A DNA stretch of 64,000 bases, from positions 11,844,088 to 11,908,087 of the forward strand of contig NC_134031.1 in assembly GCF_964204645.1 (NCBI RefSeq). Direction: 5' to 3'. This document shows, one piece after another, positions 671 through 53,486 of this stretch. The stretch comes from Tubulanus polymorphus (lineage: Eukaryota; Animalia; Nemertea). The notes under the pieces were generated by a model. That model saw only the letters and a program-made list of their open reading frames with translations. It was not told the DNA's origin and did no database searches. The translations under genes and the position numbers were made by a program. The stretch's first letter is position 1. Each line of letters begins with the position of its first letter.

Positions 671-758
671 AGTAATTGGAAGATATGGGTTTCATACCAG
701 AGTACTAGAGTACTAAACACCACTCATCACCACAAGTAATTTTTTTTCCTTATAAATG
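671..758 (+). repeat. Left TIR of Polinton-A, running to the ATG of pPolB
   Basis: Reverse complement of 53407-53486 apart from an 8-bp AGAGTACT duplication and a few substitutions. Confidence 0.9.
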
Positions 759-3700
759 GAAGAGAGTGAGTACCAGACGGAAAACAATAATGTTAATAAA
801 AATCAATATTATTGCCCATATTGTAAAAAATACATCGATAAATCTAATAAATCTAAACATGAAAAATCTGCAAATCATATAACAAATGTAATAGATTTTG
901 AAACTCCAGAAAATTCCAATGAAAGAAAAGAACGATTAGAAAATATGAATGTGGATGAAATAAAATGTGAAGTTTGTAATGAATTTGTAGTAAAAAGGAA
1001 TTATAATAGACATCTCGAATCACAAAAACACCATCAAAATTTGAGTAATAATGTTTTAGGAAAAGATTATTTTGATGATAAACCTCAAAAAGTAAAAAAA
1101 ATTACTTCAAAAACTAAATCCATTTCAAATAAACTAACATGGAAAATGTTAGAAATTATATTGATTCACTAGAAATAAAAGATACAATTGAAATTTTAGA
1201 AACATTACGTAGTAAAATTGGTCCTGCAGCTATTATATTTAGATTTTTTAAAGGTACAACAATAGAAGATTATATTAAATTTAATGAAATAATAGAAAAA
1301 ATACTAGATTTGATAACAGATGTTGAATATCCAAAAATTAGTATCTCTGGGAAAGTAAGTTTTTTAAAGTCAGAAGATAAAATGGATTATAATATTCAAA
1401 CACTCTCTGAAGAAATAATTTCAAAAACACAAATAAAAGAGAAGTTAGAAAAAATATTTAATGAATTCAAACGTCATATTGAAGAAAGATATTTTGAGGG
1501 TTCTGGCTTAAAATTGAATGAAATTATATTTTTAGATTTAAATGTTTATAATACAAAAAGAAATAAAACATCAAAAAGTAATGAAATGTTTAAAAATGAT
1601 TCAAACTTTACAACAGAAAAGGATATTAAAGCATCATCTTATATTAAATTACCATTTACAACAAAAGCAGTAATAAATGTTCAAAATGAAGATGATAAAT
1701 GTTTTCTGTGGGCAATTATTAGTTGCTTACATCCAACAGAAGATATTACACATAGTTTTAGAATAACAAATTACCGGAAATATGAAACATTATATAAAAT
1801 TGATCAATATCCAGTAACTATAAAAATGATTTCCAAAATAGAAAAAGTTAATAATTTAAAAATAAATGTATTCGAATTAATGCAATTACCAAAGACAAAA
1901 GGTGAAAATATTAAAGATTATACATTGGAAGCTTTATATTTAACAGAATATTATGATGATGAAAATGCTATAGATTTGTTATATTACAAAAAAAGATGAA
2001 AATGAACATTATATGTGGTTAAAACAAATTGATTTATTCTTTAGAACAGAAAGTGATCATCATCGTAAAATTTATCTATGTAGAAAATGTTTATCTAAAT
2101 TTATGACTGAGAATACATTATTAAAACATAATTCTTTATGTGATAATAAAGATTTTTGTAAATTAATAATGCCAACAGAAAAAGATTATAAATTGAAATT
2201 TACTAATCATAAATTTAAGAATATTGTTCCATTTGTAATTTATGGGGATTTTGAATCGTTGAATAAAGAATTAACTGATCAAGATAGAAAAGAAATATAT
2301 AACAAAAAGCAATTATTAAAATCAATGGATAAAGGAAATGAATTAAATGAAGACACAATACAAGACCCACCAATTATAAATACAATTAAAAAAGTTCATC
2401 AAAGAGCTGCTGCTTATGGAATTTATATAAAATCAAATTATCCTGAATTATATGAAAGTCAATATATTTCTTTTAGAGGTGAAAATGTAGTTAATGATTT
2501 TTGTGACAAAATGATTGAATTAGAAAGTGATTTTGCAAAATTATTAAACAAAAATAAAAGAATAGTTATGACAAAAGAAGATGAAATTGATTTTAATTAT
2601 GCAACTCATTGTTGTTATTGTGAAAAACGTTTTTATTCATTTGATAAAAAAGTTAGAGATCATGATCATTTAAATTCAAAATATCGTGGAGCTGCTCATG
2701 AAGATTGCAATTTACAAGCTAAGAAAGTTAATTTCGTACCAATATTATTTCATAATTTATCAGGCTATGATACCCATCTATTTATAAAACAATTATCGGG
2801 AAAATTGGGCGCAATTAATCAAGAAATAGAAGAATATAATGTTATGAATGGTGTAAATGTAAGAAAATATGATTTTAAACTATTAGCTAAAACATCTGAA
2901 AATTATATTTCATTTCAATTTGGTTGCATTAGATTTTTAGATTCTTATAGATTTCTAGCAAGTTCATTAGATAATTTATCAAAAAGTTAAGTTGATAATG
3001 ATTTTATAATAACTCGATATTATTATCCAAATGAACAAGATTTTAAATTATTGAGATATAAAGGCGCAATTCCTTATTCATTTTATAAAACACACAATGA
3101 TTTTAATGTAACAGAATTATTAAAAGATCAATTTTATGATCAATTAAAAGAGGAGTATGTGAAAGACGAAGTGTTTAATAGAACATTAAATATTTGGAAC
3201 CATTTTAAGATGAAAAATCATGGTGAATTAGTTGATTTATATTTAAAATCAGATGTTATGATATTGGCTGACATATTTGAAAAATTTAGAGAAGTTAATT
3301 TGAATCATTTTAATGTTGATCCTTGTTATTGCTACTCTAGTCCTGGTTTAACCTGGCAATGTGGTTTAAAATATACAAATGTAGAATTAGATTTATTAAA
3401 AGAACCAGATATGGTTTTATTATTTGAAAAATCAATAAGAGGTGGAATTAGTGGTGTTATGGGAGATAGGTATTTTAAAGCAAATGATGAATATAAATTA
3501 TTATATATTGACGCCAATAATTTATATGGTTGGGCAATGATGCAACCTCAACCATACAAAAATTTTATATTAACAGAAGTTGAAAATGATGATAAAACTG
3601 ATTGGGAAAGCGCAATTGCGAGTTTAAAAGATGAAGCACCAATTGGTTATTTCTTTGTAGTTGATTTAGAATATCCTGAAAATATAAAGTTTAAAACAAG

Positions 3701-5489
3701 AAACTTACCTTATTGCCCAGAACATTTAACCGTAGATGATAGTTATTTAAGTGAATACCAGAAGAAAATAAAACCGAAAGATCATGTTTTTACAGAAAAA
3801 TTAATACTTACTCAAAATAATAAATACAACTATATCGTTCATTATAGAATGTTAAAATTTTATCTGAAACAAGGAATGAAATTAAAGAAAGTACATAGAT
3901 ATATTGAATTTAATCAATCGAAGTGGTTAGAAAAATATATAGATTTCAATACTCAACAGAGAACCATATCAAAAACAGATTTTGAAAAAGATTTCTTCAA
4001 ATTAATGAATAATAGTTTTTATGGTAAAACATGTGAAAATATTAGAAATAGAAATGATATTGAATTAGTAAATAATTCTGAACGATTAAGACATTTACAA
4101 TCAAGTCCTAGACATTTAGGAAATAAAAGATTTGAAGATTATTTAACAGGAGTTAAATCAAAAAGAACGTCAATGAAATTTAATAAACCTATATTCATTG
4201 GTTCAACTGTTTTAGAAGTATCAAAATTATTAATGTATGATTTTTATTATAATGTTTTACAACCACTTTTTGGGGAAAAGCATATTGAAATATAATATTT
4301 TGATTCTGTAACAGCTGACACCCCAATATTATTAAAATGTAATGATAAAATATTGATAAGAAGAATTTCAGAAATAATTCCACAACAAAGTGAATGTTAT
4401 ATTTCATATGGTGAAAAAGAATTAATACAAATAAATGGATTAATGGATGTTTGGACAAGAAATGGATGGAAAAAATTAAAGAATATTATTAGACATAAAA
4501 CAAATAAGAAAATCTATAGAGTTAGAACTAAATTATGATTTGTAGATGTTACAGAAGATCATAGTTTAATTAAACGAAATGGCGATGAAATAAAACCAAC
4601 TGATATAAAAATTGGAGATGAATTATTACATAAAAGATTTTTCCAAAGAATGAATCATATGTCATTCGATGAAATTATTGATAATATTTATAATATAGAA
4701 CCCGAAACATTAGAAGAAAAAGAATATTTTATCAAAGGATTTTTCATGAGTGATGGTTCAGCAGGTGTGTATAATTATGTTTGGGGTAATAAATATTGTT
4801 GGTATTTATGCAATCAAGACTTGAAATTATTAGAAAGAATTAAGAAATTCTGTGAAGAAGTTTATTCACATAAAACATTTAGAATCATGGATGTTATGAG
4901 ATCATCAGCAGTTTATAGAATACTTGTAAATAATCCTAAAGATTTTGCTATAAAATATAATGATGAATTCTATATTCATGCAATAGTGAAAAGTAATACT
5001 TCAACTAAAGAAAAGATAGTACCAGATTATGTATTAAATGCAAAAAATAATTTAAGAAAGTGGTTCTTCATTGGATTCTATGCCGCAGATGGCACTAAAA
5101 AATTTACTTAGGATAAAAAGATAACCTTTGCACAGAAAGGAAAAGTTGCTATATCAGGATTGAATATATTATGCAGTTCATTAGGATTTAATATTAATAT
5201 AGAATTAATTAAATCTAAACCAAATTGTTTTAATTAAAGGCATGTAGAAAAAGAATTAACAGAAGAAGTTAAAGTTTATTTGAAATATATAACCCATCAG
5301 ATTATGTTTATGATTTATCAACTGAAGATGGTACATTTAACTGTGGATTTCCATTAATTGCAAAAAATGCGGATGCGTACATACTAAAAATCAAGACAAA
5401 TGAGATAACAAAGACTTAAAAACATTAAAACATCATTTTGATTTTAGCAATTATCCCAAAGATCATGAACTATTTAGCAATGATAATAA
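756..5489 (+). pseudogene. polB: Protein-primed family B DNA polymerase of Polinton-A (Zn fingers, OTU-like protease motif, exonuclease with EndoVII-like insert, polymerase); intein-containing, disrupted
   Basis: ORFs 756-1172, 1139-1999, 2013-2990 and 3051-4295 are collinear with pPolB of B/C. Motifs NEDDKCFLWAI, YGDFES, RDHDHL..YRGAAH, FHNLSGYD, YIDANNLYG, KLMNNSFYGK, YFD. Frameshifts and stops; cut at 5489 by a BEL LTR. Confidence 0.93.
4305..5368 (+). mobile_element. Intein with LAGLIDADG homing endonuclease, inserted at YFD|TDS (pol-c site); decayed
   Basis: Block A SVTADTPILLK directly after YFD; block B VDVTEDHSL; LAGLIDADG-type YFIKGFFMSDGS and WFFIGFYAADG; block H-like QKGKVAISGLNILCSSLGF; blocks F/G YVYDLSTEDGTFNCGFPLIAKN. 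Extein resumes as ADAYILKIKT (TDSYILKIKT in B/C). About 355 codons with three stops and one frameshift. Confidence 0.93.
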
Positions 5490-5701
5490 TGTCGAGAACG
5501 ACATGTGTTGGTTCTCTTATATGATTCGTTGATGTCTCTCTTATATGATTGGTTGCTGTTTCGCGCCATGTGTACTATACTGTAACCCTATACTGTAGTA
5601 ATAAAGTTAGATGCTGTTTAGATTCACAAAATACAACACGCTCTTCGACTTTACTCCTTCGGATCTGGTCAACTCTCTGTGGTGATAGTCACTCCATCAC
5701 A
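5490..5701 (+). repeat. 5' LTR of BEL element
   Basis: TG...CA termini, internal AATAAA, immediately followed by the PBS. Confidence 0.8.
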
Positions 5702-5703
5702 TT

Positions 5704-5721
5704 TGGTGCCGTGACCAGGAT
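5704..5721 (+). promoter_or_regulatory. Primer-binding site, tRNA-His-like
   Basis: TGGTGCCGTGACCAGGAT two bases after the LTR end; nearly the same sequence follows the LTR ending at 58908. Confidence 0.8.
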
Positions 5722-5722
5722 T

Positions 5723-6136
5723 ATGTCGACGACATCGGAAAATGCGTATGACGAAACTGAGCGTCAAAACGAAATGGACCAAACGAAGCGTCCTACAGCA
5801 TCTCGGTTGGCCCACCGAGGGCAGTTATCTAAATACCTCAATCGTGCAGAAGAGGTCTACCAGAGCCTACAATCCGGATCAACAGAAGTAGGCCTAGCGG
5901 AAGTTCAAGATCTGGTAGCAATCATATCATCAGCGGTCACAAAGCTAAACCTCATACAAGAACTAGATCAAACAATTCTTTCGTTGACGCCAGATGAAAA
6001 TCTACAATCATCTATCGCAGAAGCAGATGATTTCGCATTCGAACGGATTATCGAAATACAAAGATATAGATTCTTTATTGAAACGTTCAATAACGACACG
6101 AAACCGAACGCGAGCGATGGTCAGGAAACTAAATAA
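5723..6136 (+). pseudogene. gag: BEL gag N-terminus (truncated)
   Basis: ATG right after the PBS; helical RLAHRGQLSK...ELDQTIL pattern shared with the gag at 58926. Confidence 0.7.
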
Positions 6137-8795
6137 CGATACCCGAAAAATCTATGATCGAATTATCGAAGATCAAATAGCGCGTGGATTCATCGAGTCG
6201 ATCCACGAGGAAAACGAATCCGAAGGTCATTATATACCGTACCACTCGGTGAAGAAAGACTCAGCTACAACACCAATTCGCGTCGTCTACGATTGTAGCT
6301 TCCGTACGCGTCAGTCTCCGAGTTTAAATGACTGCCTGGAAAAAGGACCGCTACTGCTTAACGATCTTGGTTCGATCTTGATGAACTTTCGTACATGCGA
6401 CGTTGGACTTAGTAGCGACATCGAAAAGGCCTTCCTTCAAGTGGGCCTAGCCGAGCCAGACCGGAAATTCACGAAATTTTTCTGGCTAAGCGATCCAAAC
6501 GACCCCGAAAGCAAATTCATTACGTATCAATTTAAATCTGTATTATTCGGAGCAGCGTGCTCGCCGTTTATTCTCAATGCCGTCATAAAATCAGATTTGG
6601 AGCACGGTAGCTAACGATATGAAATCGAGCATATACGTAGACAACGTCGTTACGTCGGTGAAAGACGAATCGACAGCGATCGATTATTACCATAGTGCGA
6701 ATCGGATGATGTCCGACGCAGGATTTAAACTATGTGAGTGGACTAGTAACAACGAAAACCTCAGACATATTGCGAGTAAAGACAACTTATTGAACGGACA
6801 TGACGTTGTCAGCAACCTAGGACTCCTGTGGGATGTCAATCAGGACAGGCTTAAATACAAACAAGCGATCGAGCATAGCGAACCAGAAATTATTACGAAG
6901 CGCGAAATCGTCAGGAGCGTGGCGAGTCTCTATGATCCGTTAGGACTGTTATCACCGGTTCACATCAAATCAAAAATATTCATCCAAGAATTATGGAAAG
7001 CGAATGTCTCGTGGGATGAATTATTACCAGACGAGGTGAGCAATAACTGGAAAACTTTGTACCGCGATCTACAAAATGCGAGAAAAATAACGATTAACCG
7101 GAAGTATTTTTCTGCGCCGTCGGAGGATACCGATACTGAGTTACATTGCTTTGTGGACGCGAGTTCACGTGGCTACGGAGCCACCGTTTATCTACGTCAA
7201 GGGAAAAACACCGCGCTTGTCATAGCGAAAAACAGAGTTGCACCCGTTAAACAGCTCTCGTTACCGCGCCTCGAGCTAATGGCCGCCGTCGTCGGCGCCC
7301 GTTTGATCAAATATTCATTCGATGCGCTTAATCCATGCTACAATTTCAGCAAAGCGATTATCTGGTCCGATAGCGAGATAGTCCTAAGTTGGACTAGGAG
7401 TGAAAATCGACTTCCGTGTTTCGTTCAAAATCGGGTGCACGAGATAAACTCCTTGAATCTAGACAATCTCGATGTGGAATTGAATTACGTACCGACTCAA
7501 GATAATCCAGCGGATCTACTAACACGCGGTATAACCACTCATCAACTGGCCAATTCAACACTATGGTGGCACGGGCCCGACTGATTGAAAGTCGGCGATT
7601 GGCCAGTCTCGCGATTTCAAGCCGATAACGAAATTAAAACTGATGAATCTGTCGACGAGACTACCATGTCGATACAACACGAAAAGTTAGAAAAAGCGGG
7701 TATCTTAAAGATCATTGATCCGGAAAAATATGGATCGTTGACCGAACTCGTGCGTGTTACCGCTTATTTCCTCAGATATTTACATAATCTGAGGAATCCG
7801 GCCGATCGGGTTAGCGGGGAACTCACCGCCGATGAGATAAAAACAGCAGAAAACAAATGGGTCATGGACTTACAGAAAACATACTTTAAATCTGAATTGA
7901 ATCAATTGACAGACCAGAAACTCAAACGCGGTAACCTGGTCAAACAACTGAAAATCTTTATCGATGACAGGGGACTTATTCGATGCGGCAGTCGTGTGCA
8001 AAATTCGTCTTTACCGTACGATGCCAAATTTCCCATTCTATTACCAGATCACCATATTACGCGTTTGATCGTGTTGTTTCACCACAGGAGGTGTAAACAT
8101 ATAAGAATCGGCGGGACTGTTACTGCTATCAGGCAAAGATACTGGATACCGAAAATTAGACAAGTCGTAAAATCAGTTCTCAGGAAATGTGTTACGTGCG
8201 CTATAGTACGAGGCTCCGCCTACTGCAGACCTATACCAACGCCACTTCCAATTTCGCGCGTTACGGATGCTCCGCCCTTTACTGTTACCGGAGTAGATTA
8301 TTCAGGCGAAATTTGGGTCAGAGGCACGTCTGACAAGCGCCATAAACATTACATTTGTCTGTTTACATGCGGCACCACGCGAGCAGTCCATCTCGAATCA
8401 GTCATTAATATGACACCTGCCGCGTTTATTCGAGCATTCCGGAGATTCGTTTCGCGTAGATCGTTACCGCATGAACTGATCAGTGACAACGGGTCATACT
8501 TTCTAAAATCTTGCGTAGAGATAGAAGAAATCGTCAATTCGCCGATCGTCGCGAGATATATGGCGAACAATCGAATCAGATGGACATTCATTCCCAAACG
8601 AGCCCCTTGGTTCGGGGGATTCTGGGAAAGGATGATAGGCGTAACGAAAGAATGCCTCAGAAAGATTCTCGGTAGAAGCATCGTCACGGACGATGAATTA
8701 CGAACTCTCTTGTGTGAAATTGAGGCTACGATCAACGATCGACCTCTCACGTATGTGTATAGTACGGAAGACGAGCCTCTTCCCTTATCTCCGTC
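6137..8795 (+). pseudogene. pol: BEL pol (RT, RNase H, integrase), disrupted
   Basis: ORFs 5994-6614, 6619-7584 and 7585-8907 carry RT, RNase H and rve motifs in BEL order. Confidence 0.92.
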
Positions 8796-12244: not shown

Positions 12245-12250
12245 AATAGA

Positions 12251-13327
12251 ATGAAAAAAGAACAATATTTAAGAGATTTATATTATAACCCAGAAAGTGA
12301 AGTATCATATTCTAACGTTTCAGAATTATGGAATAAAATTAAATCTGATAATGGTGGTATAAAATATAGTGAATTAAAATCATGGTTACAAAATCAACCC
12401 ACATATCAAATTCATAAAAAGATGGATAAAACTTATTTAACAAGAAAAGTTATGGTTTCATATATCGATCAACAATGGCAAGCTGATTTAATTGATATGA
12501 AGAACTTAGAAGAATACAACAAAGGATATTTCTGGATACTGAATGTTATAGATATATTCAGTAGATACGCATGGAGTATCCCGATTAAAAATAAAACCGG
12601 TATAGAAGTTACAAATTCTTTCAAATTAATATTTAAAGAAGCTATCCCAGATAAAATACAATTTGATGAAGGTAAAGAATTTTATAACAAACATTTTAAA
12701 AAACTATTAATTGATAACGATGTAGAATATTTTTCAACACATTCAGATAAAAAAGCATCTGTTATAGAAAGATTTAATAAAACATTGAAAACTAGAATGT
12801 GGAAATATTTCACCGCTAATGAAACATATAAATATATCGATGAGTCTATAAATATATTAGATGATTTAGTTAAAGGTTATAATAATTCTAAACATAGTTC
12901 TATAGATATGAAACCTATACAAGCTAGAAAAGAAGAAAATTCAGAAATAGTTTGGAATAATTTATATGGAGCATTTGTTACACATGATTTTGGAGAACCT
13001 AAATTTAAAATAGGACAACACGTTAGAATTTCTAAATATCGAAAAACATTTTATAAAGGTTATACCCCTAATTTTACTGAAGAAATATTTAAAATTAAAA
13101 AGATAATATTAATGTTTGATTTAAAAGATGAAGAAATATTAGGTTATTTCTATGAACAAGAATTATCATTAGTACCAAATCCAGATGAAATAGAATACAA
13201 AATAGAAAAAGTATTGAAAACAAAAACTCTTAAAGGAAAAAAGTATTCTTTGGTGAAATATGAAGGATATGATGATAAATTTAATGAATGGATTTTATCT
13301 AGTAAAATTAAAAGAATAAATGAATAA
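12251..13327 (+). CDS. int: Retroviral-like (rve) integrase with C-terminal chromodomain
   Basis: WQADLIDM, IDIFSRYAW, QFDEGKEF, IERFNKTLK; chromo YKIEKVL...LVKYEGYDDKFNEWI. Confidence 0.95.
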   Translation: MKKEQYLRDLYYNPESEVSYSNVSELWNKIKSDNGGIKYSELKSWLQNQPTYQIHKKMDKTYLTRKVMVSYIDQQWQADLIDMKNLEEYNKGYFWILNVIDIFSRYAWSIPIKNKTGIEVTNSFKLIFKEAIPDKIQFDEGKEFYNKHFKKLLIDNDVEYFSTHSDKKASVIERFNKTLKTRMWKYFTANETYKYIDESINILDDLVKGYNNSKHSSIDMKPIQARKEENSEIVWNNLYGAFVTHDFGEPKFKIGQHVRISKYRKTFYKGYTPNFTEEIFKIKKIILMFDLKDEEILGYFYEQELSLVPNPDEIEYKIEKVLKTKTLKGKKYSLVKYEGYDDKFNEWILSSKIKRINE

Positions 13328-13931
13328 AGATTTATTTATATTTGAACCTCATAATATGTTAGTTACTGGTGTAACCAATTGTGGTAAAACACACTTCATA
13401 TTATATTTATTAGAAACTATTTATAAGAATCATTTTGATAATATAATATTATTCTGTCCTACATATGAAATGAATAAAACATATAATAGAGATATAGTTA
13501 AGATAAAAAAGTTTATTATATTAGACCCTAAAACAGTAAAAGAAAATTTAGATAATTGTATTAAAATAGGAATTGATACTTATAAAGGATCTAATACATT
13601 ATTTATTATCGATGATTGCGCAAATTTACATGATTCTGAAATTAGAGAAAGTGAGTTATGTTATTTAGCTTTCTCTGGTAGACATTTTGGGATAACAACA
13701 TGGGTTTTAAATCAGAAATATAATTCAATTGTGAAAGATTTTAGAGAGAATATAAGATTTCTAGTTTTATTCTACAACAAAGATAGAAAATCTATGCAAC
13801 AATCATTGGAAGAAAATCAAATTATACCTCCTGAATTACATGATGAATATATGAATAAATTAAAGAATAATAAAGGTTCAAAATTATTACTGAGACTACA
13901 ATTTCCATATGAATATAAATTTATAAAATAA
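13320..13931 (+). CDS. A32/FtsK-like DNA packaging ATPase
   Basis: Walker A GVTNCGKT, Walker B LFIIDD, GRH motif, Q sensor. Confidence 0.92.
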   Translation: MNKDLFIFEPHNMLVTGVTNCGKTHFILYLLETIYKNHFDNIILFCPTYEMNKTYNRDIVKIKKFIILDPKTVKENLDNCIKIGIDTYKGSNTLFIIDDCANLHDSEIRESELCYLAFSGRHFGITTWVLNQKYNSIVKDFRENIRFLVLFYNKDRKSMQQSLEENQIIPPELHDEYMNKLKNNKGSKLLLRLQFPYEYKFIK

Positions 13932-15827: not shown

Positions 15828-17075
15828 TTAATACATAACACTATCTAATTGTGAATTTACAATATTTAATTGCGCGTCAGATATAATATAAATGTGCATT
15901 TTGAAATTTTTGATTCCTTTATTCTTTGTCATGAATAATTGTATTCCATCTTTTGTATTTTGTAGTTTTTTTCCAGAACCATGTAATAAGTTATCTTCAG
16001 TTGTTCTAAAATCTAACCATAATGCGTATTTATTACCGGTATAATAATCAATTTGATTAATGTTACAATTTTCAGATGATTTTACTTTTTCATTCATAAA
16101 ATGTTTTCTAATTTCTGGCCATTGATCCATCATTCTCATTCCTTGACAAAATATTTTATTCGCTATACCTTCAATAGTTATTTCTACTTTTGATATTTCA
16201 GGATTATAATAATTGTCAACATTTATTGCGCCATTAGTATACGTTCCATTGGTAAAAAATATTAATATACCTTTAATAGATCTTCTAGGAAAGTTAATAT
16301 TCTCATTAATTATTTCATCATTTGCATTAATAGTTACAGTTTTAAATTTATCAATATAATCATATAATAATGAAAATCCTTGATTGTATTGAGTTTGAAT
16401 TATACTTGAAATATTTTCATCAGTTACTGTATCATATTCTAAACATATATTTGATAATTTATAACTCATATCTTTATTAACACTAGATAATACAATTTCA
16501 TTTACAGGAGCAAATGTTATCTCAAATATAACGTCTTCTTGAATTGCGTATTTATATAAAGGTGCATTATTATTTATCAATTCAAAGTCTAATGGAATTT
16601 TATATTTGCTTCCATATATACTTTTTATCAATTTATCTACATCATTAGTTAATATTGCGCTATTAGCTTCTGATCTTAATTTATTTTGGTTTTCTGATTG
16701 AATTCCTTGAAATATCATATTATTTCTATTTTCTTTAGTTAACCATAAATCTTTATAATGCATAAATAAATTATAATCATCTAATGAGAAAACTGTTTCT
16801 GGACCAATCTTTATTGTTAACTTTTTAATCAAATATCTTCCAACATTATCAACGACATAATTATTATTATTACCGATTACTTTTATATCGGCTGATAAAT
16901 AAATACTATTTGGAACATAAAAAGTATTTTGTGTTAATCGAGGGATTCTAACGTATAAAGTTTCATCGGGATTAATATTTGAAGGGTTATGAGTAATTAT
17001 ATGATGTGATCTTTCTGCTTTAATAGCATTAGATATTCTATGATTCTTAGAAGGATTGATATAACTCCCACTCAT
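15828..17075 (-). CDS. Major capsid protein (putative double jelly-roll)
   Basis: Intact 415-aa beta-rich ORF, highly conserved between A, B and C; ITHNPS.I...L.VR.P.L, N.GR.LIKKLTIKI and KYALWLDFRT resemble invertebrate Polinton MCPs. Fold not verified. Confidence 0.75.
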   Translation of the reverse strand: MSGSYINPSKNHRISNAIKAERSHHIITHNPSNINPDETLYVRIPRLTQNTFYVPNSIYLSADIKVIGNNNNYVVDNVGRYLIKKLTIKIGPETVFSLDDYNLFMHYKDLWLTKENRNNMIFQGIQSENQNKLRSEANSAILTNDVDKLIKSIYGSKYKIPLDFELINNNAPLYKYAIQEDVIFEITFAPVNEIVLSSVNKDMSYKLSNICLEYDTVTDENISSIIQTQYNQGFSLLYDYIDKFKTVTINANDEIINENINFPRRSIKGILIFFTNGTYTNGAINVDNYYNPEISKVEITIEGIANKIFCQGMRMMDQWPEIRKHFMNEKVKSSENCNINQIDYYTGNKYALWLDFRTTEDNLLHGSGKKLQNTKDGIQLFMTKNKGIKNFKMHIYIISDAQLNIVNSQLDSVMY

Positions 17076-18824: not shown

Positions 18825-19271
18825 TTAAAATTTAAAATATAATATTCCTCCGATTACAATTCCTATACAAGTTATAGCTAATTTAGTATTTTCATGGGAT
18901 TTATTATCATCATTTAGTTTAATTATATCATGTTGAATAATATCAGTTCTATTATTTTCTGATGTATTGTAATCTTTTATTTTGGAATCATTATCCAATT
19001 TAATATTATTAGTTTTAGTTTCTGTTGATTGAATATGTTTTTTATTTTTTTCACCTTCCATTAATTTTGGAGCAGTGATAATCTTTTTATTTATATCATT
19101 TAATCCAAATGAATTATTTATTGTTGCAGTTTTAATTAGATTATTGTTATGTCTTCTTTGTTCTCCTAATGAACTATTTTTATCAATATGTTTAAATAAA
19201 TAACCACCACCAGTAAATGCCAAAGCGTTAACAATTGCCGATCCTATAATAGTTATAATTGCAGAAGCCAT
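18825..19271 (-). CDS. Deletion-generated fusion ORF
   Basis: N-terminus equals 34537-34661; C-terminus equals ~36482-36801 of copy C. Confidence 0.8.
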   Translation of the reverse strand: MASAIITIIGSAIVNALAFTGGGYLFKHIDKNSSLGEQRRHNNNLIKTATINNSFGLNDINKKIITAPKLMEGEKNKKHIQSTETKTNNIKLDNDSKIKDYNTSENNRTDIIQHDIIKLNDDNKSHENTKLAITCIGIVIGGILYFKF

Positions 19272-19295
19272 TTATTTAGCAAAAAAATTATGCAT

Positions 19296-19517
19296 TTATA
19301 TGGGAGGAATATATTTTTGTTTTTCCAAATAATCAATAGTTAAATTAGATAAAGTAACTGCCAATGTTAATTTTAAAATATCATTTATATCAAATCTATC
19401 AACATTAACACTTCCCATTTTGAATACTTTTTTTAATACCATTGAATAACCAACAGTTCCAACTGATAGTAATGCGCCATTATATAATCCAGTTATTATC
19501 CACTTATTATTACTCAT
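19296..19517 (-). CDS. 73-aa small hydrophobic protein
   Basis: Homologous to 34291-34512; preceded by TAAATG. Confidence 0.72.
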   Translation of the reverse strand: MSNNKWIITGLYNGALLSVGTVGYSMVLKKVFKMGSVNVDRFDINDILKLTLAVTLSNLTIDYLEKQKYIPPI

Positions 19518-19859
19518 TTATTTATCAAAAAAATTACTATCATCAAAATATTTAGTTAACTTATTTACGATTAATTCAACATTTATATCATTACTAGTTT
19601 CATTTGTATATATTTCAATATCATCGATGATAAAATCTTCATCTAATTCATAAAATCTTAAAGATTCTCTAATTAAATTAGTAATCTTTTCTACATTTAA
19701 AGTTTCTTCATCTATTGTTGTTTCATACTCAAATGTTGTTTCATTAGAAAATGCAATATTTTTGATATGTGTAATTACATCATTAATGTTAAATTTCATT
19801 TCTTTCTCATGTTTAAAATCAAACCCAAAACATATACTCGGTCCAACAGTTATATTCAT
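19518..19859 (-). CDS. 113-aa acidic protein of unknown function
   Basis: Homologous to 33936-34290. Confidence 0.7.
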   Translation of the reverse strand: MNITVGPSICFGFDFKHEKEMKFNINDVITHIKNIAFSNETTFEYETTIDEETLNVEKITNLIRESLRFYELDEDFIIDDIEIYTNETSNDINVELIVNKLTKYFDDSNFFDK

Positions 19860-19875
19860 TTATATAATGAAAAAA

Positions 19876-20628
19876 TTACTCTTTACATCTTATAATTAAT
19901 TCATATATCACAGGAAAGTTATTCAAATCAATTAAATATCCATTGTGATTTCTTATTTCTAACTTGAAATTATTAAATTTTGGAATACAAGGTTTGAAAT
20001 CACATTCTGTTAAATTATAATTTATTTGAGTTCCAAATTGTTTAACATTTTTTAGCGGTTAAATATTTAGAATACTAGAATTACAAATTGTTTCTTTAGT
20101 TGCTTCGAAAGTTTTTGTAGGCTCGATTAAATTGCAATAAATATAAGTGTGTAAAAGGTATTATATTTGAGCTGCCTTCTGCGTTTCCAGTAACTGTAAG
20201 CGGTTTAATTCCTAACATTTTAGCCAGTTTTTGTTTACCATAAATTTATGTTGTTCATTAGATATCTTTATTCTAATTTTATTAGTATTATCAATTTTAT
20301 TAAATTAAATTTCAAATACAGAAGTGCCCCCGATTTTCAACCGGGCTCTTCTATTAATTTCCTGCGCTAATGATTCTAAATTATATAATCCTGGTTTTAA
20401 AAATATATGAAACCACTTATCTTTATTTCTCATATAAATCATAAACCCTCTATGTTCAAAAGTTTTATCCGATACATTGTAAAAAGAATTACATAAACTT
20501 ATATTAACTAATTTTAAATCAACACAATTCTTAAATTCTCTATCTAATTGTACTAGTAAATTATGAGATTTATAATTTGTAAGTTTTCTAGAATCAACAA
20601 ATATTCTGTATTCTTTTAATTCCACCAT
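19876..20628 (-). pseudogene. Minor capsid (penton-like) protein, disrupted
   Basis: IFVDSR...VQLDREFKN..LKLVNISLCNSFYNV and later YIYCNLI, consistent with single jelly-roll mCPs; stops and frameshifts. Confidence 0.65.
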
Positions 20629-20645
20629 TTATTTTACATATTTTC

Positions 20646-20999
20646 TCATTCGAAATCTATTTCATGGTGCCCTTTTTCATTCTTACCTTTGAATACGAAA
20701 TAGAAATCTCCAGAACATAATTCTTCTAAATCTTCACTTGATAATCTATGAAATCTATCCGGTAAATATGTTCTGAATTTATATGTATTTCCTTTTAATC
20801 CTTCATATTCTAAGTGTATAACTAATTTATCTCCATATTTGTTAGCAACTGTATCAATATTTGTAATTAGATATTTCTTATGGATTGTTAATTCTGTTAA
20901 CTTTTTGAATTTATAATCTACAGATTTTACATTTGTAGTATCTTTTATTCTATCTAGAAATGATTTGTTGTTCTCACTGTTTGCTTGTTTACTCTCCAT
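20646..20999 (-). CDS. 117-aa conserved Polinton protein, possibly OB-fold ssDNA-binding
   Basis: FKKL.EL...KKY.I...NKYG.KLV..L...YLPDRF; homologues at 32791, 53083 and 63337. Function is inferred. Confidence 0.7.
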   Translation of the reverse strand: MESKQANSENNKSFLDRIKDTTNVKSVDYKFKKLTELTIHKKYLITNIDTVANKYGDKLVIHLEYEGLKGNTYKFRTYLPDRFHRLSSEDLEELCSGDFYFVFKGKNEKGHHEIDFE

Positions 21000-21028
21000 T
21001 TTAATAACATATTTTTATTAAAATTTGA

Positions 21029-24000
21029 TTAACACGTTAGAATTCTTTTCATTATCTCGTTCTCTTTTGTTTCTTCTCTTTTAAATTTTAAGTATTCATC
21101 TAAATTACAACCATAAGCAACTGTATGAATTCCATCATCTAAAATATATCTTTTATCATCAAATGGGTTTAGACTTATCTTTTCAATTTCTTCAATAAAC
21201 ATTTCATGATATTCAGATCTTAAACATCTCATCTTATGTTTTCTAACTTCTTCATTGAATATACAATTTATGTAATCTTTGAAATGAATATTCTTTTCTA
21301 CTACACTTTTGGTTATTCCTTTTAACTTTTTAGCTTCATGTTCTTTAGTTTTATATGAATACATTTTAGATCTAATACCGATGAATTCAATCATTTCTTC
21401 ACCACCTAATTCATCTTTGAATTTACCGGGAACTTTTTTATTATCATTGCTAAACAATTCATGATCTTTAGGATAGTTACTAAAATCAAAATGATGTTTT
21501 AATGTTTTTAAATCATCAGTTATGTTATCAGTTTTTATCTTTAATATGTAAGAATCTGTATCAAAATATAATATTTCTATATGTTTTTCTCCAAAAAGTG
21601 GTTGTAATACATTATAATAGAATTCATACATTAGTAATTTTGATAATTCTAAAACTGAAGCGCCAACATAGATTGGTGTATTAAATTTCATTGATGTTCT
21701 TCTCATTTTAACTGCAGCTAAATTTTCATCAAATATTCTGTTACCAATGAACTTAGGATATGATTGTAAATGCCTTATCCTTTTACCATTACTGACTAAC
21801 TCAATATCATTTCTATTTCTAATATTTTCACAAGTCTTACCATAGAATGCATTATTCATTAACTTGAAGAAATCTTTTTCGAAATCAGTTTTAGCTTCAG
21901 TTCTCTGTTTGGTGTTAAAATCTATATATTTTTCCAACCATTTAGATTGACTAAATGAAATATATCTATGTACTTTTTTTAGGATCATTCCTTGTTTTAG
22001 ATAAAACTTCAACATTCTATAATGTACTACATAATTATATTTATCTTCCTGAGTTACCATTAACTTTTCTGTAAGAATATGATTTTCGGGTTTAATTCTT
22101 TTTTGGTAATTTGATAATTCTTCATGAGTTACAGTTTTATGTTCGGGACAGTTAGCTAGATTTCTAGATTTAAATTTAATATGTTCAGGATATTCTAAAT
22201 CTACAACAAAGAAGTAACCAGTATCTGAATCATCTGCAATATCTAGGATTCTTTTCTTCCAATCAAATTCATCATTATTTTCAGTCTGTAAAACTTCACT
22301 TATTTCAAATACTCCATAAGGTTGTGGTTCCATCATTGCCCAACCATACAAATTATTTGCATCTATATATAATAACTTATATCCGGGGTTATCATTTACA
22401 TTGAAATATCTATCACCTAATACACCCGGAACTCCTCCTCTTATAGATTTTTCAAATAATAATAATTGATCTATATTTGTTAACAAATCCATTTTTATAT
22501 CTGTAAATTTTAATCCACAATCCCATGTTAATCCTGGTGATGAATAACAATGACAAGGATCAATATTGAAATATTTTAGGTTTACATCTCTAAACCTTTC
22601 GAATATATCGGTTAATAATAATACATCTGATTTTAAATATAAATCTACTAATTGCCCATGATTTTCTATTTTGAAATGATTCCAAATATTCAATGTTCTA
22701 TTATAGACTTCATCTTTAACATATTCATTTTTTAATTCATCATAGAATTGTTCTTTCAATAATTCAGTTATGTTAAAATCATTATGATTTTTATAGAAAG
22801 AATATGGAATTGCTCCTTTATATCTCATTAATTTAAAATCATCATTATTTGGGTAATATTCTTTTAATATCTTTAATTCATCATCAACTAATGATTTTGA
22901 TAAGTTATCTAATGAACTATTTAAAAATCTATATGAATCTATAAATCTTAGGCAACCAAATTGGAATGATATATAATTCTCAGGTGTTTTAGCTAACATT
23001 CTAAATTTATAAGTTGGTATTTTATCTTTTGATCTATTTGAATTTAATATTTCTATTTCATTATTGATTTCTTCTATTTTATGGCATAACTGTTTGATGA
23101 ATAAATGTGCATCATATCCTGATAGATTATGAAATATAACTGGTATAAAGTTAATTTTCTTAGCTTGTAAGTTACAATTCTCATGTGCGGCGCCCCTAAA
23201 CTTTCCATTCAAATGATCATGGTCTCTTACTTTTTTATCTTTATAATTAAATATCTTTTCACAATAATAACATTTACCTGCAAACGCAAATTCTTCTTTA
23301 TCTTCTTCTGTCATCATAATTTCTATATTTTTATTTAACTTTTCATTAAATTTTATTTCATATTCAATTAATAAGTCACAAAAATGATTGATAACATTTT
23401 CATTTCTATAATGATAATATTCACTTTCAATTAGTTCTGGATAATCAGATTTTATATATAACCCGAAAGCAGCAGCTGATTGATGAATCTTTTTAATAGT
23501 ATTTGTTTTTGGTGGTTCATCTGAAAAATCATTTTCATTAGAATTTAATTTCTTTCTTTTATAATATATTTCTTTTTTATCTTGATCAGTTAATTCTTTA
23601 TTTAATGATTCAAAATCTCCATATATAACAAATGGTACTTTATTTTTGTAATCATATTTTTTGAATTCTAATATTTTATCTTTTTCATTTGGTAAAACTA
23701 ATTTACAATAATCATGATTTTCACATAATTGTTTATGATTTAATAACGTACTTTCATTACTGAATCTATGTAAACATTTTCTACAAAGATATATTTTATG
23801 GTGATCATTTTCTGATTTAAAAAATAAATCGATTTGTTTAATCTACATATAATGATTCTCATAATATAGTATATCTATAACATCGTTTGAATCATAATCT
23901 TTTGATAGATATAAAGGTTCTAATGTATAATGTTTTATGTTGTTACCTTTTGTATTTGGTAATTTGATTAAATCAAATACATTTATCTTTATATTATTAT

Positions 24001-25554: not shown

Positions 25555-25812
25555 CGCATTAACACATTTGTTAGTGGGCTGCAGCCGTTAGTACAGGGCC
25601 TGTAATTATCAAAACCACTAGTTTTAAAATCCTACCTAAATTACTAATTACCACTTTAATTTCGGTGTGACTATTTCCTGTCAAAGTTGCCTGTTTAGAA
25701 TCTTGACCCAAGCAAATCGAATTAAGTACTAGCACTAAAACCCTAATTTGTCATTGTTTCTGCAATTGTTTACCGATACAGTCTACAGTATTGCCTTTGT
25801 CGTTTCAGCCTA

Positions 25813-26619
25813 TTGTATACGGTACACGCTAGCCACGTAGGAGGGTTTCATGTATACGAATACGACGACGATGCTAAGGAGATTATTAAAGAAAATTGGG
25901 CAAAAACGCAGGACTTTCTTGAGGCCAATCACTACAAAAATCCATATCTTTCGGCAGTTCATAGCAAAGCCAAAGGACAGTTACAAAGAATGGCTATGGT
26001 CTTGCAAGCAACGAACGACGCTGCAACATTGTTGAGTCAAGTAGAGTGCGGCAAATCTTTGGACGATGTGTTCGTCCGACAAATCGACGATCTACTGAAA
26101 TTACAAAACAATGAAACTGTGACCGTTTTCAAATCAGAACAGAAATATGAGGCGTTTATTCACGTGATTACCAAGGAAACAGCTGTACGCGCACTCCGAT
26201 TAATCAATCACATGATCACGCACAAACAGTTCTTGTCAGGAATTATCGATAATGCGGGCGGTGATTTAAACGTGGTGCCGTCACGCCTGGCTACAAAAAT
26301 ACTCCTTACACTAGGAGAATTAGTTACCGCCTCCTACATTGTCAATCGTATGCGAATGCCCAGCGAAACTGTGCAGGCGGAATTTTCGCGTTTGAAGGAT
26401 ATCGGATTGGGTGTTTTGGAGCACAGAAAACCGGCTCGCGGTGGTCGAGTCAGCCTTATCTTCCGAAAGGTCAATTATCGCACCCTCGACCATGAGGCGC
26501 GCGCTAACGTCTATCGAATATTACGTTCGCTGGCAATTCCTACCCAATCGTTTCTGGATAATCTCGGTGCTGCAGCACAAAAACGAAAACCCGAAGATGA
26601 TGAGATCGCTGATGACTAA
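25813..26619 (+). CDS. ORF or exon resembling the C-terminal part of DUF3987-like proteins (lid helices plus winged helix)
   Basis: SKAKGQLQRMAMVLQ, ITKETAVRALRL, terminal LKDIGLG...GR..LIFRK. No clear ATG; family assignment is by recollection. Confidence 0.4.
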   Translation: MYTVHASHVGGFHVYEYDDDAKEIIKENWAKTQDFLEANHYKNPYLSAVHSKAKGQLQRMAMVLQATNDAATLLSQVECGKSLDDVFVRQIDDLLKLQNNETVTVFKSEQKYEAFIHVITKETAVRALRLINHMITHKQFLSGIIDNAGGDLNVVPSRLATKILLTLGELVTASYIVNRMRMPSETVQAEFSRLKDIGLGVLEHRKPARGGRVSLIFRKVNYRTLDHEARANVYRILRSLAIPTQSFLDNLGAAAQKRKPEDDEIADD

Positions 26620-29093: not shown

Positions 29094-29243
29094 ATGAACT
29101 CAAAACATATGCGCCATCTATCTAGTAACATGTGACGAACACTTTATTAACATACATCCAGAAAAAGTAGTTCCAACAGACATGCGAGATGTAATACAGT
29201 AGACAATTATAAATTTGGTGTGTAAGGTATAGTAAAGGTGCAC

Positions 29244-30116
29244 CTTGTCGCCCGCAAAAATTCAATATTTTGGTTTTATCGCCAGCGACAATTCATTATT
29301 TTGGTTTTGTCGCTCGCGATAATTCTTCTTTTTGGTTTTGCCGCCCGCGACAATTCATCATTTTGGTTTTATATTTTGTTTTTGTCGCGCGCGACAATTT
29401 TTTTTTTGTTTTCTCGCCCGCGACAATTCAATATTTTGGTTTTATCGCCTGCGATAATTCATTATTTTGGTTTTGTCGCCCGAGACAATTCATTATTTTG
29501 GTTTTATCGCCGGCGACAATTCATTATTACGGTTTTATCGCCCGCGACAATTCATTATTTTGGTTTTGTCGCCCGCGACAATTCACCATTTTCGTTTTGT
29601 CACCTGCGACAATTCATTATTTTGGTTTTATCGCCCGCGACAATTCATTATTTTGGTTTTATCGCCCGCGACAATTCATTATTTTGGTTTTATCGCCCGC
29701 GACAATTCATTATTTTGGTTTTGTCGCCCCGACAATTCTTTTTTTGGTTTTGTCGCCCGCGACAATTCATTAGTTTGGTTTTGTCGCCCGCAACAATTCA
29801 ATATTTTGGTTTTGTCGCCCGCGACAATTCAATATTTTGGTTTTATCGCCCGCGACAATTCAATATTTTGGTTTTATCGCCCGGGATAATTCATTATTTT
29901 GGTTTTATCGCCCAAGACAATTCATCATTTTGGTTTTATCGCCCGCGACAATTCATTATTTTGGTTTTGTCGCCCGCGACAATTCACCATTTTGGTTTTG
30001 TCGCCTGGACAATTCACCATTTTGGTTTTGTCGCCCGCGGCAATTCATTATTTTGGTTTTGTTGCCCCCACAATTCTTTCTTTGGTTTTATCGCCCGCGA
30101 CAATTCATTAGTTTGC
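29244..30116. repeat. 32-bp minisatellite, about 27 copies
   Basis: Unit TTTTGGTTTT(A/G)TCGCCCGCGACAATTCATTAT. Confidence 0.97.
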
Positions 30117-32761
30117 TATTAGAATTCAAAAAATATGATTACAAAAATAAAGTACCATTTGTTATATATGGAGATTTTGAATCATTAAATAAAGAATTAA
30201 CTGATCAAGATAAAAAAGAAATATATTATAAAAGAAAGAAATTAAATTCTAATGAAAATGATTTTTCAGATGAACCACCAAAAACAAATACTATTAAAAA
30301 GATTCATCAATCAGCTGCTGCTTTCGGGTTATATATAAAATCTGATTATCCAGAACTAATTGAAAGTGAATATTATCATTATAGAAATGAAAATGTTATC
30401 AATCATTTTTGTGACTTATTAATTGAATATGAAATAAAATTTAATGAAAAGTTAAATAAAAATATAGAAATTATAATGACAGAAGAAGATAAAGAAGAAT
30501 TTGCGTTTGCAGGTAAATGTTATTATTGTGAAAAGATATTTAATTATAAAGATAAAAAAGTAAGAGACCATGATCATTTGAATGGAAAGTTTAGGGGCGC
30601 CGCACATGAGAATTGTAACTTACAAGCTAAGAAAATTAACTTTATACCAGTTATATTTCATAATCTATCAGGATATGATGCACATTTATTCATCAAACAG
30701 TTATGCCATAAAATAGAAGAAATCAATAATGAAATAGAAATATTAAATTCAAATAGATCAAAAGATAAAATACCAACTTATAAATTTAGAATGTTAGCTA
30801 AAACACCTGAGAATTATATATCATTCCAATTTGGTTGCCTAAGATTTATAGATTCATATAGATTTTTAAATAGTTCATTAGATAACTTATCAAAATCATT
30901 AGTTGATGATGAATTAAAGATATTAAAAGAATATTACCCAAATAATGATGATTTTAAATTAATGAGATATAAAGGAGCAATTCCATATTCTTTCTATAAA
31001 AATCATAATGATTTTAACATAACTGAATTATTGAAAGAACAATTCTATGATGAATTAAAAAATGAATATGTTAAAGATGAAGTCTATAATAGAACATTGA
31101 ATATTTGGAATCATTTCAAAATAGAAAATCATGGGCAATTAGTAGATTTATATTTAAAATCAGATGTATTATTATTAACCGATATATTCGAAAGGTTTAG
31201 AGATGTAAACCTAAAATATTTCAATATTGATCCTTGTCATTGTTATTCATCACCAGGATTAACATGGGATTGTGGATTAAAATTTACAGATATAAAAATG
31301 GATTTGTTAACAAGTATAGATCAATTATTATTATTTGAAAAATCTATAAGAGGAGGAGTTTCAGGTGTATTAGGTGATAGATATTTCAATGTAAATGATA
31401 ACCCTGGATATAAGTTATTATATATAGATGCAAATAATTTGTATGGTTGGGCAATGATGGAACCACAACCTTATGGAGTATTTGAAATAAGTGAAGTTTT
31501 ACAACGTGAAAATAATGATGAATTTGATTGGAAGAAAAGAATCCTAGATATTGCAGATGATTCAGATACTGGTTACTTCTTTGTTGTAGATTTAGAATAT
31601 CCTGAACATATTAAATTTAAATCTAGAAATCTAGCTAACTGTCCCGAACATAAAACTGTAACTCATGAAGAATTATCAAATTACCAAAAAAGAATTAAAC
31701 CCGAAAATCATATTCTTACAGAAAAGTTAATGGTAACTCAGGAAGATAAATATAATTATGTAGTACATTATAGAATGTTGAAGTTTTATCTAAAACAAGG
31801 AATGATCCTAAAAAAAGTACATAGATATATTTCATTTAGTCAATCTAAATGGTTGGAAAAATATATAGATTTTAACACCAAACAGAGAACTGAAGCTAAA
31901 ACTGATTTCGAAAAAGATTTCTTCAAGTTAATGAATAATGCATTCTATGGTAAGACTTGTGAAAATATTAGAAATAGAAATGATATTGAGTTAGTCAGTA
32001 ATGGTAAAAGGATAAGGCATTTACAATCATATCCTAAGTTCATTGGTAACAGAATATTTGATGAAAATTTAGCTGCAGTTAAAATGAGAAGAACATCAAT
32101 GAAATTTAATAAACCAATCTATGTTGGCGCTTCAGTTTTAGAATTATCAAAATTACTAATGTATGAATTCTATTATAATGTATTACAACCACTTTTTGGA
32201 GAAAAACATATAGAAATATTATATTTTGATACAGATTCTTACATATTAAAGATAAAAACTGATAACATAACTGATGATTTAAAAACATTAAAACATCATT
32301 TTGATTTTAGTAACTATCCTAAAGATCATGAATTGTTTAGCAATGATAATAAAAAAGTTCCCGGTAAATTCAAAGATGAATTAGGTGGTGAAGAAATGAT
32401 TGAATTCATCGGTATTAGATCTAAAATGTATTCATATAAAACTAAAGAACATGAAGCTAAAAAGTTAAAAGGAATAACCAAAAGTGTAGTAGAAAAGAAT
32501 ATTCATTTCAAAGATTACATCAATTGTATATTCAATGAAGAAGTTAGAAAACATAAGATGAGATGTTTAAGATCTGAAGATCATGAAATGTTTATTGAAG
32601 AAATTGAAAAGATAAGTCTAAACCCATTTGATGATAAACGATATATTTTAGATGATGGAATTCATACAGTTGCTTATGGTTGTAATTTAGATGAATACTT
32701 AAAATTTAAAAGAGAAGAAACAAAAGAGAACGAGATAATGAAAAGAATTCTAACGTGTTAA
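30117..32761 (+). pseudogene. polB: pPolB, 5'-truncated, intein-free (YFD|TDS at 32230/32231)
   Basis: Nearly identical to 21029-23673; reading frame open. Confidence 0.95.
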
Positions 32762-32790
32762 TCAAATTTTAATAAAAATATATATTATAA

Positions 32791-33144
32791 ATGGAGAGTA
32801 AACAAGCACACAGTGAGAACAACAAATTATTTCTAGATAGAATAAAAGATACTTCAAATGTCAAATCAGTAGATTATAAATTTAAGAAGTTAAAAGAATT
32901 AATAATCCATAAGAAATATCTAATTACAAATATTGATACAGTAACTAACAAATATGGAGATAAATTAGTTATACACTTAGAACATGAAGGATTAAAAGGA
33001 AATACATATAAATTCAGAACATATTTACCGGATAGATTTCATAGATTATCAAGTGAAGATCTAGAAGAATTATGTTCTGGTGATTTCTATTTCGTATACA
33101 AAGGTAAGAATGAAAAAGGGCACCATGAAATAGATTTCGAATAA
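32791..33144 (+). CDS. 117-aa conserved protein (putative OB-fold SSB)
   Basis: Homologous to 20646-20999. Confidence 0.72.
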   Translation: MESKQAHSENNKLFLDRIKDTSNVKSVDYKFKKLKELIIHKKYLITNIDTVTNKYGDKLVIHLEHEGLKGNTYKFRTYLPDRFHRLSSEDLEELCSGDFYFVYKGKNEKGHHEIDFE

Positions 33145-33161
33145 GAAAATATGTAAAATAA

Positions 33162-33919: not shown

Positions 33920-33935
33920 TTTTTTCATTATATAA

Positions 33936-34512: not shown

Positions 34513-34536
34513 ATGCGTAATTATTCTACTAAATAA

Positions 34537-53082: not shown

Positions 53083-53409
53083 TTAATCAACAATTTCTAA
53101 ATCATGATGACCGTCTTCATTTTTTCCATGATAGATTATTTTAAATCCTTCTAAATCTTTTAATTCCTCTGTACTCAATGAAACCCATTTATCGGGTAAA
53201 AATACTTTAAATTCTCGCGATGTACTAACATTACAGTAACTTAAATTCGCTGATACTTTCTCTCCATATTTAGTTTTCATCTTTTCTAATTTCAATATTT
53301 TATGTTCAATTTCTTTCGTAACATCAATTAACTTTTTTATTTCAAATTGTTTTTTTGCTGGTTTTATTCTGTTATTTATTGTTGCTAAGAATGATTTCCT
53401 ATCTCCCAT
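53083..53409 (-). CDS. 108-aa homologue of the 117-aa putative SSB, starting at the inner edge of the right TIR
   Basis: SFL..I, TKYGEKV, FKVFLPDKW..LSTEEL..L, YHGKNEDGHHDLE. Confidence 0.75.
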   Translation of the reverse strand: MGDRKSFLATINNRIKPAKKQFEIKKLIDVTKEIEHKILKLEKMKTKYGEKVSANLSYCNVSTSREFKVFLPDKWVSLSTEELKDLEGFKIIYHGKNEDGHHDLEIVD

Positions 53410-53486
53410 TTATTAGGAAAACAAATTACTTGTGGTGATGAGTGGTGTTTAGTACTCTGGTATGAAACCCACATCTTCCAATTACT
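53407..53486 (-). repeat. Right TIR of Polinton-A
   Basis: Reverse complement of 671-758; followed by TSD CCTTTG. Confidence 0.9.

Follow-up and report, generated by a model that had tools for sequence, protein, structure and literature searches.

Introduction

The closest described systems to the locus reported here are the pol-c inteins of giant viruses, among them that of mimivirus PolB, which sit in polymerase motif C at YGD|TDS. The accessible text on these elements describes inteins of about 350 residues that begin with Ser and end with Asn, carry a T-x-x-H motif and contain two LAGLIDADG motifs (Ogata et al., 2005, PMC549080). The present family shares each of these features at the same position in motif C, reading YxD|TD, and its intact members also share the +1 Thr. 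In established inteins, Ser1 undergoes an acyl shift aided by T-x-x-H, the chain passes to the +1 Thr, and cyclisation of the Asn follows (PMC5874633 and PMC549080, in their accessible parts).

Viruses act as intein donors, and the accessible text of Gallot-Lavallee et al. (2023, PMC10710043) covers viral-like polymerase inteins on nuclear scaffolds of Klebsormidium, Tetrabaena and Honda, together with inteins of Anaeramoeba, where, as here, a virus brings an intein-bearing polymerase into a eukaryotic nucleus. A further likeness is found in the HNH and VSR inserts of Polinton protein-primed polymerases (pPolBs), which also place a nuclease domain within the polymerase (accessible parts of Jeong et al., 2023, 10.1101/2023.08.22.554363; Krupovic et al., 2024, PMC11071308) and which, according to the accessible text of the latter, may stem from intein invasions. 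Reviews hold, in their accessible portions, that inteins do not occur in metazoan genomes (PMC5784728) or in multicellular organisms (PMC5874633).

Here we describe a window of 64,000 nucleotides from the nemertean Tubulanus polymorphus, in which the first-pass annotation had proposed a dead intein within a Polinton pPolB. Our reading, held with good confidence, is that the window contains a broken copy of a Polinton-resident intein family, that intact copies are predicted to splice and likely home, and that the family likely goes back to one ancient entry from a giant virus. A bolder version, in which animal nuclei harbour a living giant-virus-derived intein that still splices, converts empty dispersed Polinton copies and has jumped between two deep Polinton polymerase classes, is offered tentatively, as possible rather than probable.

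In an intact element, the polymerase would be translated as a precursor in which some 350 additional residues separate the first Asp of motif C from its Thr. Judging from the conserved residues, Ser1, the Thr and His of block B, the Asp of block F and the terminal Asn would excise the intein, the exteins would be joined on the +1 Thr, and the motif C active site would be restored. The nested two-motif LAGLIDADG nuclease would cut the same site in intein-free copies, and repair off a filled copy would carry the intein and short flanks across, as pairs of filled and empty copies suggest. With each Polinton integration the intein would enter germ lines as cargo, as it has in this genome.

Table 1. 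Features of the window, with positions counted from its first nucleotide.
Feature	Position	Strand	Basis
Left terminal inverted repeat, outer Polinton	671..766	+	6-bp target duplication at 665-670
N-extein of pPolB copy A (PF03175; EndoVII-like domain), broken	756..4304	+	Pfam
Intein coding sequence (~354 codons; 3 stops and 1 frame change)	4305..5368	+	motifs, profiles, alignment to relatives
N-terminal Hint (splicing) region: Ser1, block B T-x-x-H 4551-4562; end approximate	4305..4620	+	TIGR01445 residues 2-88; PI-PkoII alignment up to residue 113
LAGLIDADG motif 1, acidic residue retained	4728..4757	+	alignment
LAGLIDADG motif 2, acidic residue retained	5064..5093	+	alignment, Pfam
C-terminal Hint region: block F Asp, block G Lys-Asn; reading frame differs from rest of intein	5303..5368	+	alignment
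C-extein remnant of copy A: +1 Ala, frame change near 5409, truncated	5369..5489	+	comparison with B/C
BEL/Pao retrotransposon fragment truncating copy A	5490..8795	+	PF05380 E 7e-49; right end set at next Polinton-type terminus
Polinton integrase with chromodomain, in nest; may belong to nested element	12245..13327	+	PF00665 E 6e-9
Packaging ATPase (A32), in nest	13320..13931	+	PF04665 E 1.5e-11
Probable major capsid protein, in nest	15828..17075	-	PF16903 E 0.01, weak
pPolB copy B, intein-free; empty site 21560/21559	21029..23842	-	frames, Pfam, alignment
pPolB copy C, intein-free; empty site 32230/32231; 99-100% identical to B	30117..32761	+	frames, alignment
Right terminal inverted repeat, outer Polinton	53399..53486	-	target duplication at 53487-53492; Gypsy-type integrase frame split

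An intein at the pol-c site of a Polinton polymerase

The host of the insert, polymerase copy A, matches the protein-primed PolB family PF03175 with an E-value of 8e-17. The insert follows the first Asp of motif C (YFD|), which is the pol-c site, and its boundaries agree with the coordinates given by the first-pass annotation: YFD occupies 4296-4304, Ser1 lies at 4305, the terminal Asn ends at 5368 and the extein resumes at 5369. The splicing motifs read VDVTEDH (4542-4562), YVYDLST (5303-5323) and FPLIAKN (5348-5368). Translated with X at the stops, the insert scores above the cut-offs of TIGR01445 intein_Nterm in NCBIfam (29.9 bits against 24.5) and of PF14528 LAGLIDADG_3 in Pfam (24.5 bits against 22.5), while PF14890 Intein_splicing, at E 9e-5, stays under that model's own cut-off. 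PI-PkoII is the top of three PDB sequence matches (E 1e-5). The 32-residue C-terminal piece alone finds no family match in Pfam or NCBIfam profile searches, yet in alignment it matches the block F/G termini of intact relatives. Ser1 and TEDH are present in 10 of 10 aligned rows, and the window intein retains both the block F Asp and the terminal Asn. Sequence comparison thus confirms 4305-5368 as a class 1 pol-c LAGLIDADG intein in a Polinton protein-primed polymerase, as had been proposed.

This copy is dead, as the annotation had also concluded, because the extein residue at +1 is Ala, where intact Polinton relatives carry Thr. All of the reported lesions are seen: stops at codons 4536, 5109 and 5235 and a frame change near 5274, in addition to the +1 Ala. 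The extein is broken as well, with stops at 2988 and 4293 and frame changes near 1150, 1990 and 5409, and it ends at 5489 at the BEL/Pao fragment.

The penultimate residue of the window intein is Lys, not the usual but non-obligatory His, which had been singled out as an oddity. Lys is normal in the family, occurring at this position in 46 of 113 inteins (His in 45) and in 49 of 84 inteins of a second set from viral loci (His in 28), and by these counts is a family trait. Decay as the source of the Lys is rejected, since Lys is about as common as His among family inteins. Natural exceptions to the penultimate His are also noted in the accessible part of PMC5874633.

An N-terminal OTU-like domain of PolB and a division into Alpha and Beta classes are features of adintoviruses (Starrett et al., 2021, PMC8502044, accessible part). 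Pfam profiles list no OTU-like domain on the Polinton polymerases studied here.

Copies B and C and the state of the family in the species

Two further Polinton polymerases in the window, copies B and C, have reading frames that run uninterrupted through the pol-c site; the annotation was right that there is no insert at 21559/21560 or 32230/32231. It had also taken them as intein-free alleles of A, a reading we reject: with 73% identity to copy A in protein and about 75% in DNA, B and C form a separate Polinton family. They may or may not be homing targets of the A-type intein. A 48-nt divergent stretch 3′ of the intein in A compared with B/C (58-75% identity, then 83-100%) was considered as proof of homing and set aside, as overall identity is only about 75%. 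The B and C regions (19146-23673 and 30117-34662) form an inverted near-duplicate, 97.5% identical over 4.5 kb with polymerases at 99-100%, and a tandem-repeat tract at 29200-30100 takes the place of the 5′ part of copy C.

We drew on raw reads of a single whole-genome run carrying the same species label (X6; 150-nt reads, about 12% of the run read); they show that the intein is multi-copy in the species. A further run (X5, share 0.11) that gave only 7 contigs was set aside. Its depth is 114-279 over 15 bins at 85% likeness, at least 8-19 times the lowest of 30 bins in another stretch (14.5 at 90% likeness), a bin that may itself be repeated. A sense codon replaces the copy A stop in 445 of 452 reads at 4293, 253 of 256 at 4536, 75 of 79 at 5109 and 122 of 130 at 5235; the frame change is absent from 100 of 119 reads, and the +1 codon differs from that of the window in all 107. 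The annotation had suggested a search for intact copies, and most reads do lack the window copy's stops, frame change and +1 Ala; with 150-nt reads these are counts per site, from which a single copy intact end to end is not demonstrable. At several positions no X6 read matches the window's letter, and this sample shows no trace of the exact window copy. The A family seems to be almost entirely filled in this species, because an A-type-specific polymerase stretch (4084-4154) has a depth of 246, matching the first half of the intein. Copies of the B/C family lack the intein and outnumber those of A, with a depth of 420-632. A run taken to be RNA gave no coverage of the stretch that contains copy B, a result without bearing on expression.

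Relatives in other Polinton polymerases

Full-length inteins occupy the same site in five further Polinton-type polymerase lineages: P0070, the P0071 cluster, P0003/P0072, the P0073 cluster and P0074. The intein of P0070 is 62% identical to the window intein, and closer fragments (P0002, P0007 and P0012) reach 64-72%. PF03175 was verified for P0070, P0071, P0074 and P0207. The reading frame through polymerase and intein is unbroken in P0070, P0074, P0207 and seven members of the P0071 cluster. The P0071 cluster numbers 136 members on contigs of up to 1.0 Mb and the P0073 cluster 121; such multi-copy clusters on long contigs suggest that large eukaryotic genomes host these lineages. Clusters of the Atlas, as leads only, give eukaryotic pPolB at 0.83-0.84 and intein/LAGLIDADG at 0.91-0.94.

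Both LAGLIDADG motifs are conserved in all seven Polinton rows. A structure model of the intact relative P0003, which stands for the family and not for the window copy, has a pLDDT of 90.7 from a 62-row alignment, and its top Foldseek matches are the endonuclease-bearing inteins TliVMA (the best, E 9e-18), PI-PkoII, PI-PfuI and PI-SceI. The model thus predicts a Hint fold with a nested two-motif LAGLIDADG domain. Frames of the P0003 cluster (P0003, P0037, P0038, P0040, P0041 and P0043) consist almost solely of intein; several begin 11 residues before it and end 4-7 after, and some have Asn at +2. This cluster is possibly a subfamily that retains the nuclease after loss of the polymerase.

Outside the Polinton lineages, every match is an RNA-primed PolB or a topoisomerase. 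The 150 top-ranked library representatives comprise 137 RNA-primed PolBs, 4 topoisomerases, 1 pPolB and 8 unassigned, and all 84 distinct inteins from viral loci come after GD, as in RNA-primed PolB. In scans of viral contigs and of metagenome contigs, the latter with 55 loci, identity across the greater part of the intein never exceeded 46%. Several variations were seen among these wider relatives. Type II topoisomerases (P0152, P0155, P0164, P0168 and others) carry the same intein family at a look-alike DxD|TDG site and form one clade, apparently the result of another ectopic jump. Three RNA-primed PolBs (P0077, P0249 and P0369) have an intein two residues 3′ of pol-c, after YGDTD, and P0077 carries both inteins back to back. 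P0153, named as Pol delta of Chloropicon primus, contains a pol-c intein of the same family.

Filled and empty copies point to homing

True filled/empty pairs come from hosts other than this genome. In the P0071 cluster, 15 members are listed, of which we used the 12 longer than 1100 residues (7 filled, 5 empty) and omitted 3 short ones; filled members of 1537 aa and empty members of 1191 aa differ by a 346-aa insert. Filled and empty copies are 98.4-98.5% identical over residues 1-990, but identity falls to 91% over the 51 residues preceding the site and to 80% over the 43 that follow. Ten fixed differences fall within 55 positions around the site, against none in the other 1136 (Fisher p 2e-14, descriptive only, as the near/far window was chosen after seeing the data and the copies are related). 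Both haplotypes of a distant segment (residues 178-233) occur in filled and in empty copies, and the sequences on either side of the intein in filled copies are similar to those in filled copies from a lineage only 66% identical. Differences clustered at the site fit either co-conversion or the survival of resistant empty copies, and each of these requires an active nuclease. The intein family thus likely spreads by homing. The P0073 cluster offers a second pair: filled P0207 is separated from its empty counterpart P0210 by 3 residue changes, none of them close to the site, and the two would represent a recent gain or a precise loss.

The empty copies P0198, P0199, P0200, P0202 and P0203 are not alike at the position immediately ahead of the site, where they carry Thr, Phe or Gly in a protein otherwise 97% conserved, and one of them has Cys at +1. 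They are candidates for nuclease-resistant alleles.

The strongest alternative, which we nonetheless consider unlikely, is that the intein is real and splices but no longer homes, being carried vertically, so that filled and empty pairs reflect precise loss or ordinary recombination between element families. Intein identity does follow extein identity among related polymerases, and of the two families in this species one seems to carry the intein throughout and the other to lack it. Against homing also count the emptiness of B and C despite their abundance and the pair P0207/P0210, which has no flank differences. Vertical carriage would, however, leave the retention of both nuclease motifs in every Polinton row and the placing of fixed differences solely beside the site to be accounted for, as well as the sharing of distant haplotypes at residues 178-233 by filled and empty versions and the jump of the intein to a polymerase with no BLAST-detectable similarity. 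Homing remains the reading that we prefer.

Origin of the Polinton inteins

We placed the family in an IQ-TREE mixture-model tree of 60 hand-picked rows, rooted on six pol-b-site inteins and with archaeal pol-c inteins left out. The seven Polinton inteins form one clade (100/99), whose sister comprises 12 RNA-primed PolB inteins, mostly with an FPLI-like end (92/91, below star level); 7 of these 12 come from IMG/VR contigs named as giant-virus MAGs. The two groups together sit within a clade of 36 rows (97/97). Forcing the Polinton inteins outside all pol-c inteins is rejected by the AU test (p-AU 0.0003). In a FastTree analysis of 175 inteins of at least 300 residues, nine Polinton rows form one clade at only 85 and do not group with the FPLI-type giant-virus inteins. 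The giant-virus origin put forward by the annotation is thus likely, because the clade nests among giant-virus-type pol-c inteins and an outside position is rejected.

The annotation's picture of a one-off capture into this particular element is not upheld. Intein and extein identities run in parallel (62/57% for A and P0070, 48/46% for A and P0071, 65/66% for P0071 and P0072), and in copy A the G+C content of intein and extein is alike (24.9% and 24.5%; third positions 14.3% and 14.4%); the giant-virus inteins that were checked are likewise A+T-rich. Capture by Polintons was probably single and old, because there is one clade, intein divergence tracks that of the exteins, and base composition is equal. 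Co-infection may have been the setting of the transfer from giant virus to Polinton; Polinton-like viruses found with entomopoxviruses indicate that such meetings of viruses occur in animals (PMC11296320, accessible part).

The extein of P0074 has no BLAST match to other Polinton exteins, whereas its intein is 43-46% identical to the others and nested in the clade (96/93), which argues for a later jump to a distant polymerase class. Judged by eye, this polymerase probably belongs to the VSR-bearing class of Jeong et al.

That the direction was reversed or indirect, with Polintons or an unsampled third element holding the intein before giant viruses, is very improbable. The stem of the Polinton clade is long and the branches within it are deep, and the midpoint drawing of the FastTree analysis sets the clade near the root, but the mixture-model tree nests it under several giant-virus-type branches, the AU test speaks against an outside position, and the best library matches are overwhelmingly RNA-primed PolBs with a single pPolB. 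Transfer from giant viruses to Polintons therefore stays our preferred direction.

Chromosomal setting

Polintons, or Mavericks, typically have inverted repeats at their termini, AG...CT ends and a target duplication of 6 bp, and they encode a protein-primed PolB, a retroviral-like integrase, an A32 ATPase, a capsid protein and an adenain-like protease. The outer insertion at 671-53486 (52.8 kb) shows these terminal features, including inverted ends and the same 6 bp on both flanks, and the copy A polymerase begins just within the terminus at 671. The insertion contains several nested Polinton pieces, and termini of another type lie at 8796, 25554 and 47527; the integrase, the A32 ATPase and the weak capsid match are features of this nest, whose owner among the nested pieces may differ from A. 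No adenain-like protease was found among 19 proteins scanned (the window has 58 long frames). A 290-aa frame at 25747-26619 has no Pfam match. To our knowledge, BEL/Pao elements are restricted to animals. An ISXO2-like transposase (PF12762) lies within the nest at 47732-48655, its named relatives being animal: among the 120 matches listed of 550, all that carry a species name are animal, and the window transposase itself is recorded on a 21.6-Mb contig.

The intein locus is integrated DNA in an animal chromosome, as the annotation held, because an insertion with a target duplication splits a Gypsy-type integrase, the contig is 21.6 Mb long and the transposase matches are animal-named. That it is instead a contaminant, a protist or a mis-assembled free virus is hardly credible: the best read runs contain under half of the sampled words and X6 lacks the window's letter at several positions, but the duplication inside an LTR retrotransposon, the long contig with its BEL/Pao fragment, the animal-named transposase relatives and the high depth in a whole-genome run of the same species label all speak against it.

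Comparison with known systems

A true intein, carried by Polintons and present in many copies in an animal chromosome, contrasts with the statements of absence in the reviews. The accessible literature yielded no description of a Hint-containing intein in a Polinton pPolB or an animal nuclear genome, in keeping with the novelty claimed by the annotation; the supplementary intein tables of PMC5784728 and PMC10710043, sources accessible in part, could bear on this. As far as the literature search reaches, it is the first complete intein found in a protein-primed polymerase, and it records, at the level of genes, that giant viruses and Polintons have been in contact. The presence of filled and empty copies within one genome makes homing in an animal cell testable, and an intact intein retained in an essential motif would imply translation and use of these polymerases. 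Although the copy in the window is a fossil, its family, by its sequences, has intact members and marks of recent movement.

Inteins of invertebrate iridoviruses were reportedly treated by Bigot and colleagues in 2013. That of Chilo iridescent virus illustrates that inteins do occur in viruses of animal cells, but it is Gln-type and belongs to a large virus that the accessible text does not describe as integrated, and it is not germ-line cargo (PMC549080). The viral-like polymerase inteins of Gallot-Lavallee et al. differ in their hosts, which are algae and protists; the words "polinton" and "animal" are absent from the main text (PMC10710043, accessible part). The HNH and VSR inserts differ in that no Hint or LAGLIDADG domain is reported for them in the accessible sources, while a complete intein is present here, which lends partial support to the idea that nuclease inserts of pPolB derive from inteins; the terms intein, Hint and LAGLIDADG do not occur in the accessible text of Jeong et al. 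(2023, 10.1101/2023.08.22.554363), nor is the word intein used in that of Starrett et al. (2021, PMC8502044). The nearest likeness remains the mimivirus intein and its giant-virus kin; the two giant-virus-type inteins compared are 40% identical to the present intein. The mimivirus host is an RNA-primed PolB, whereas the host here is a protein-primed PF03175 polymerase of an integrating Polinton, multi-copy in an animal chromosome. The element thus belongs to a known kind, the class 1 pol-c LAGLIDADG inteins; what is new is the type of gene and of genome that hosts it.
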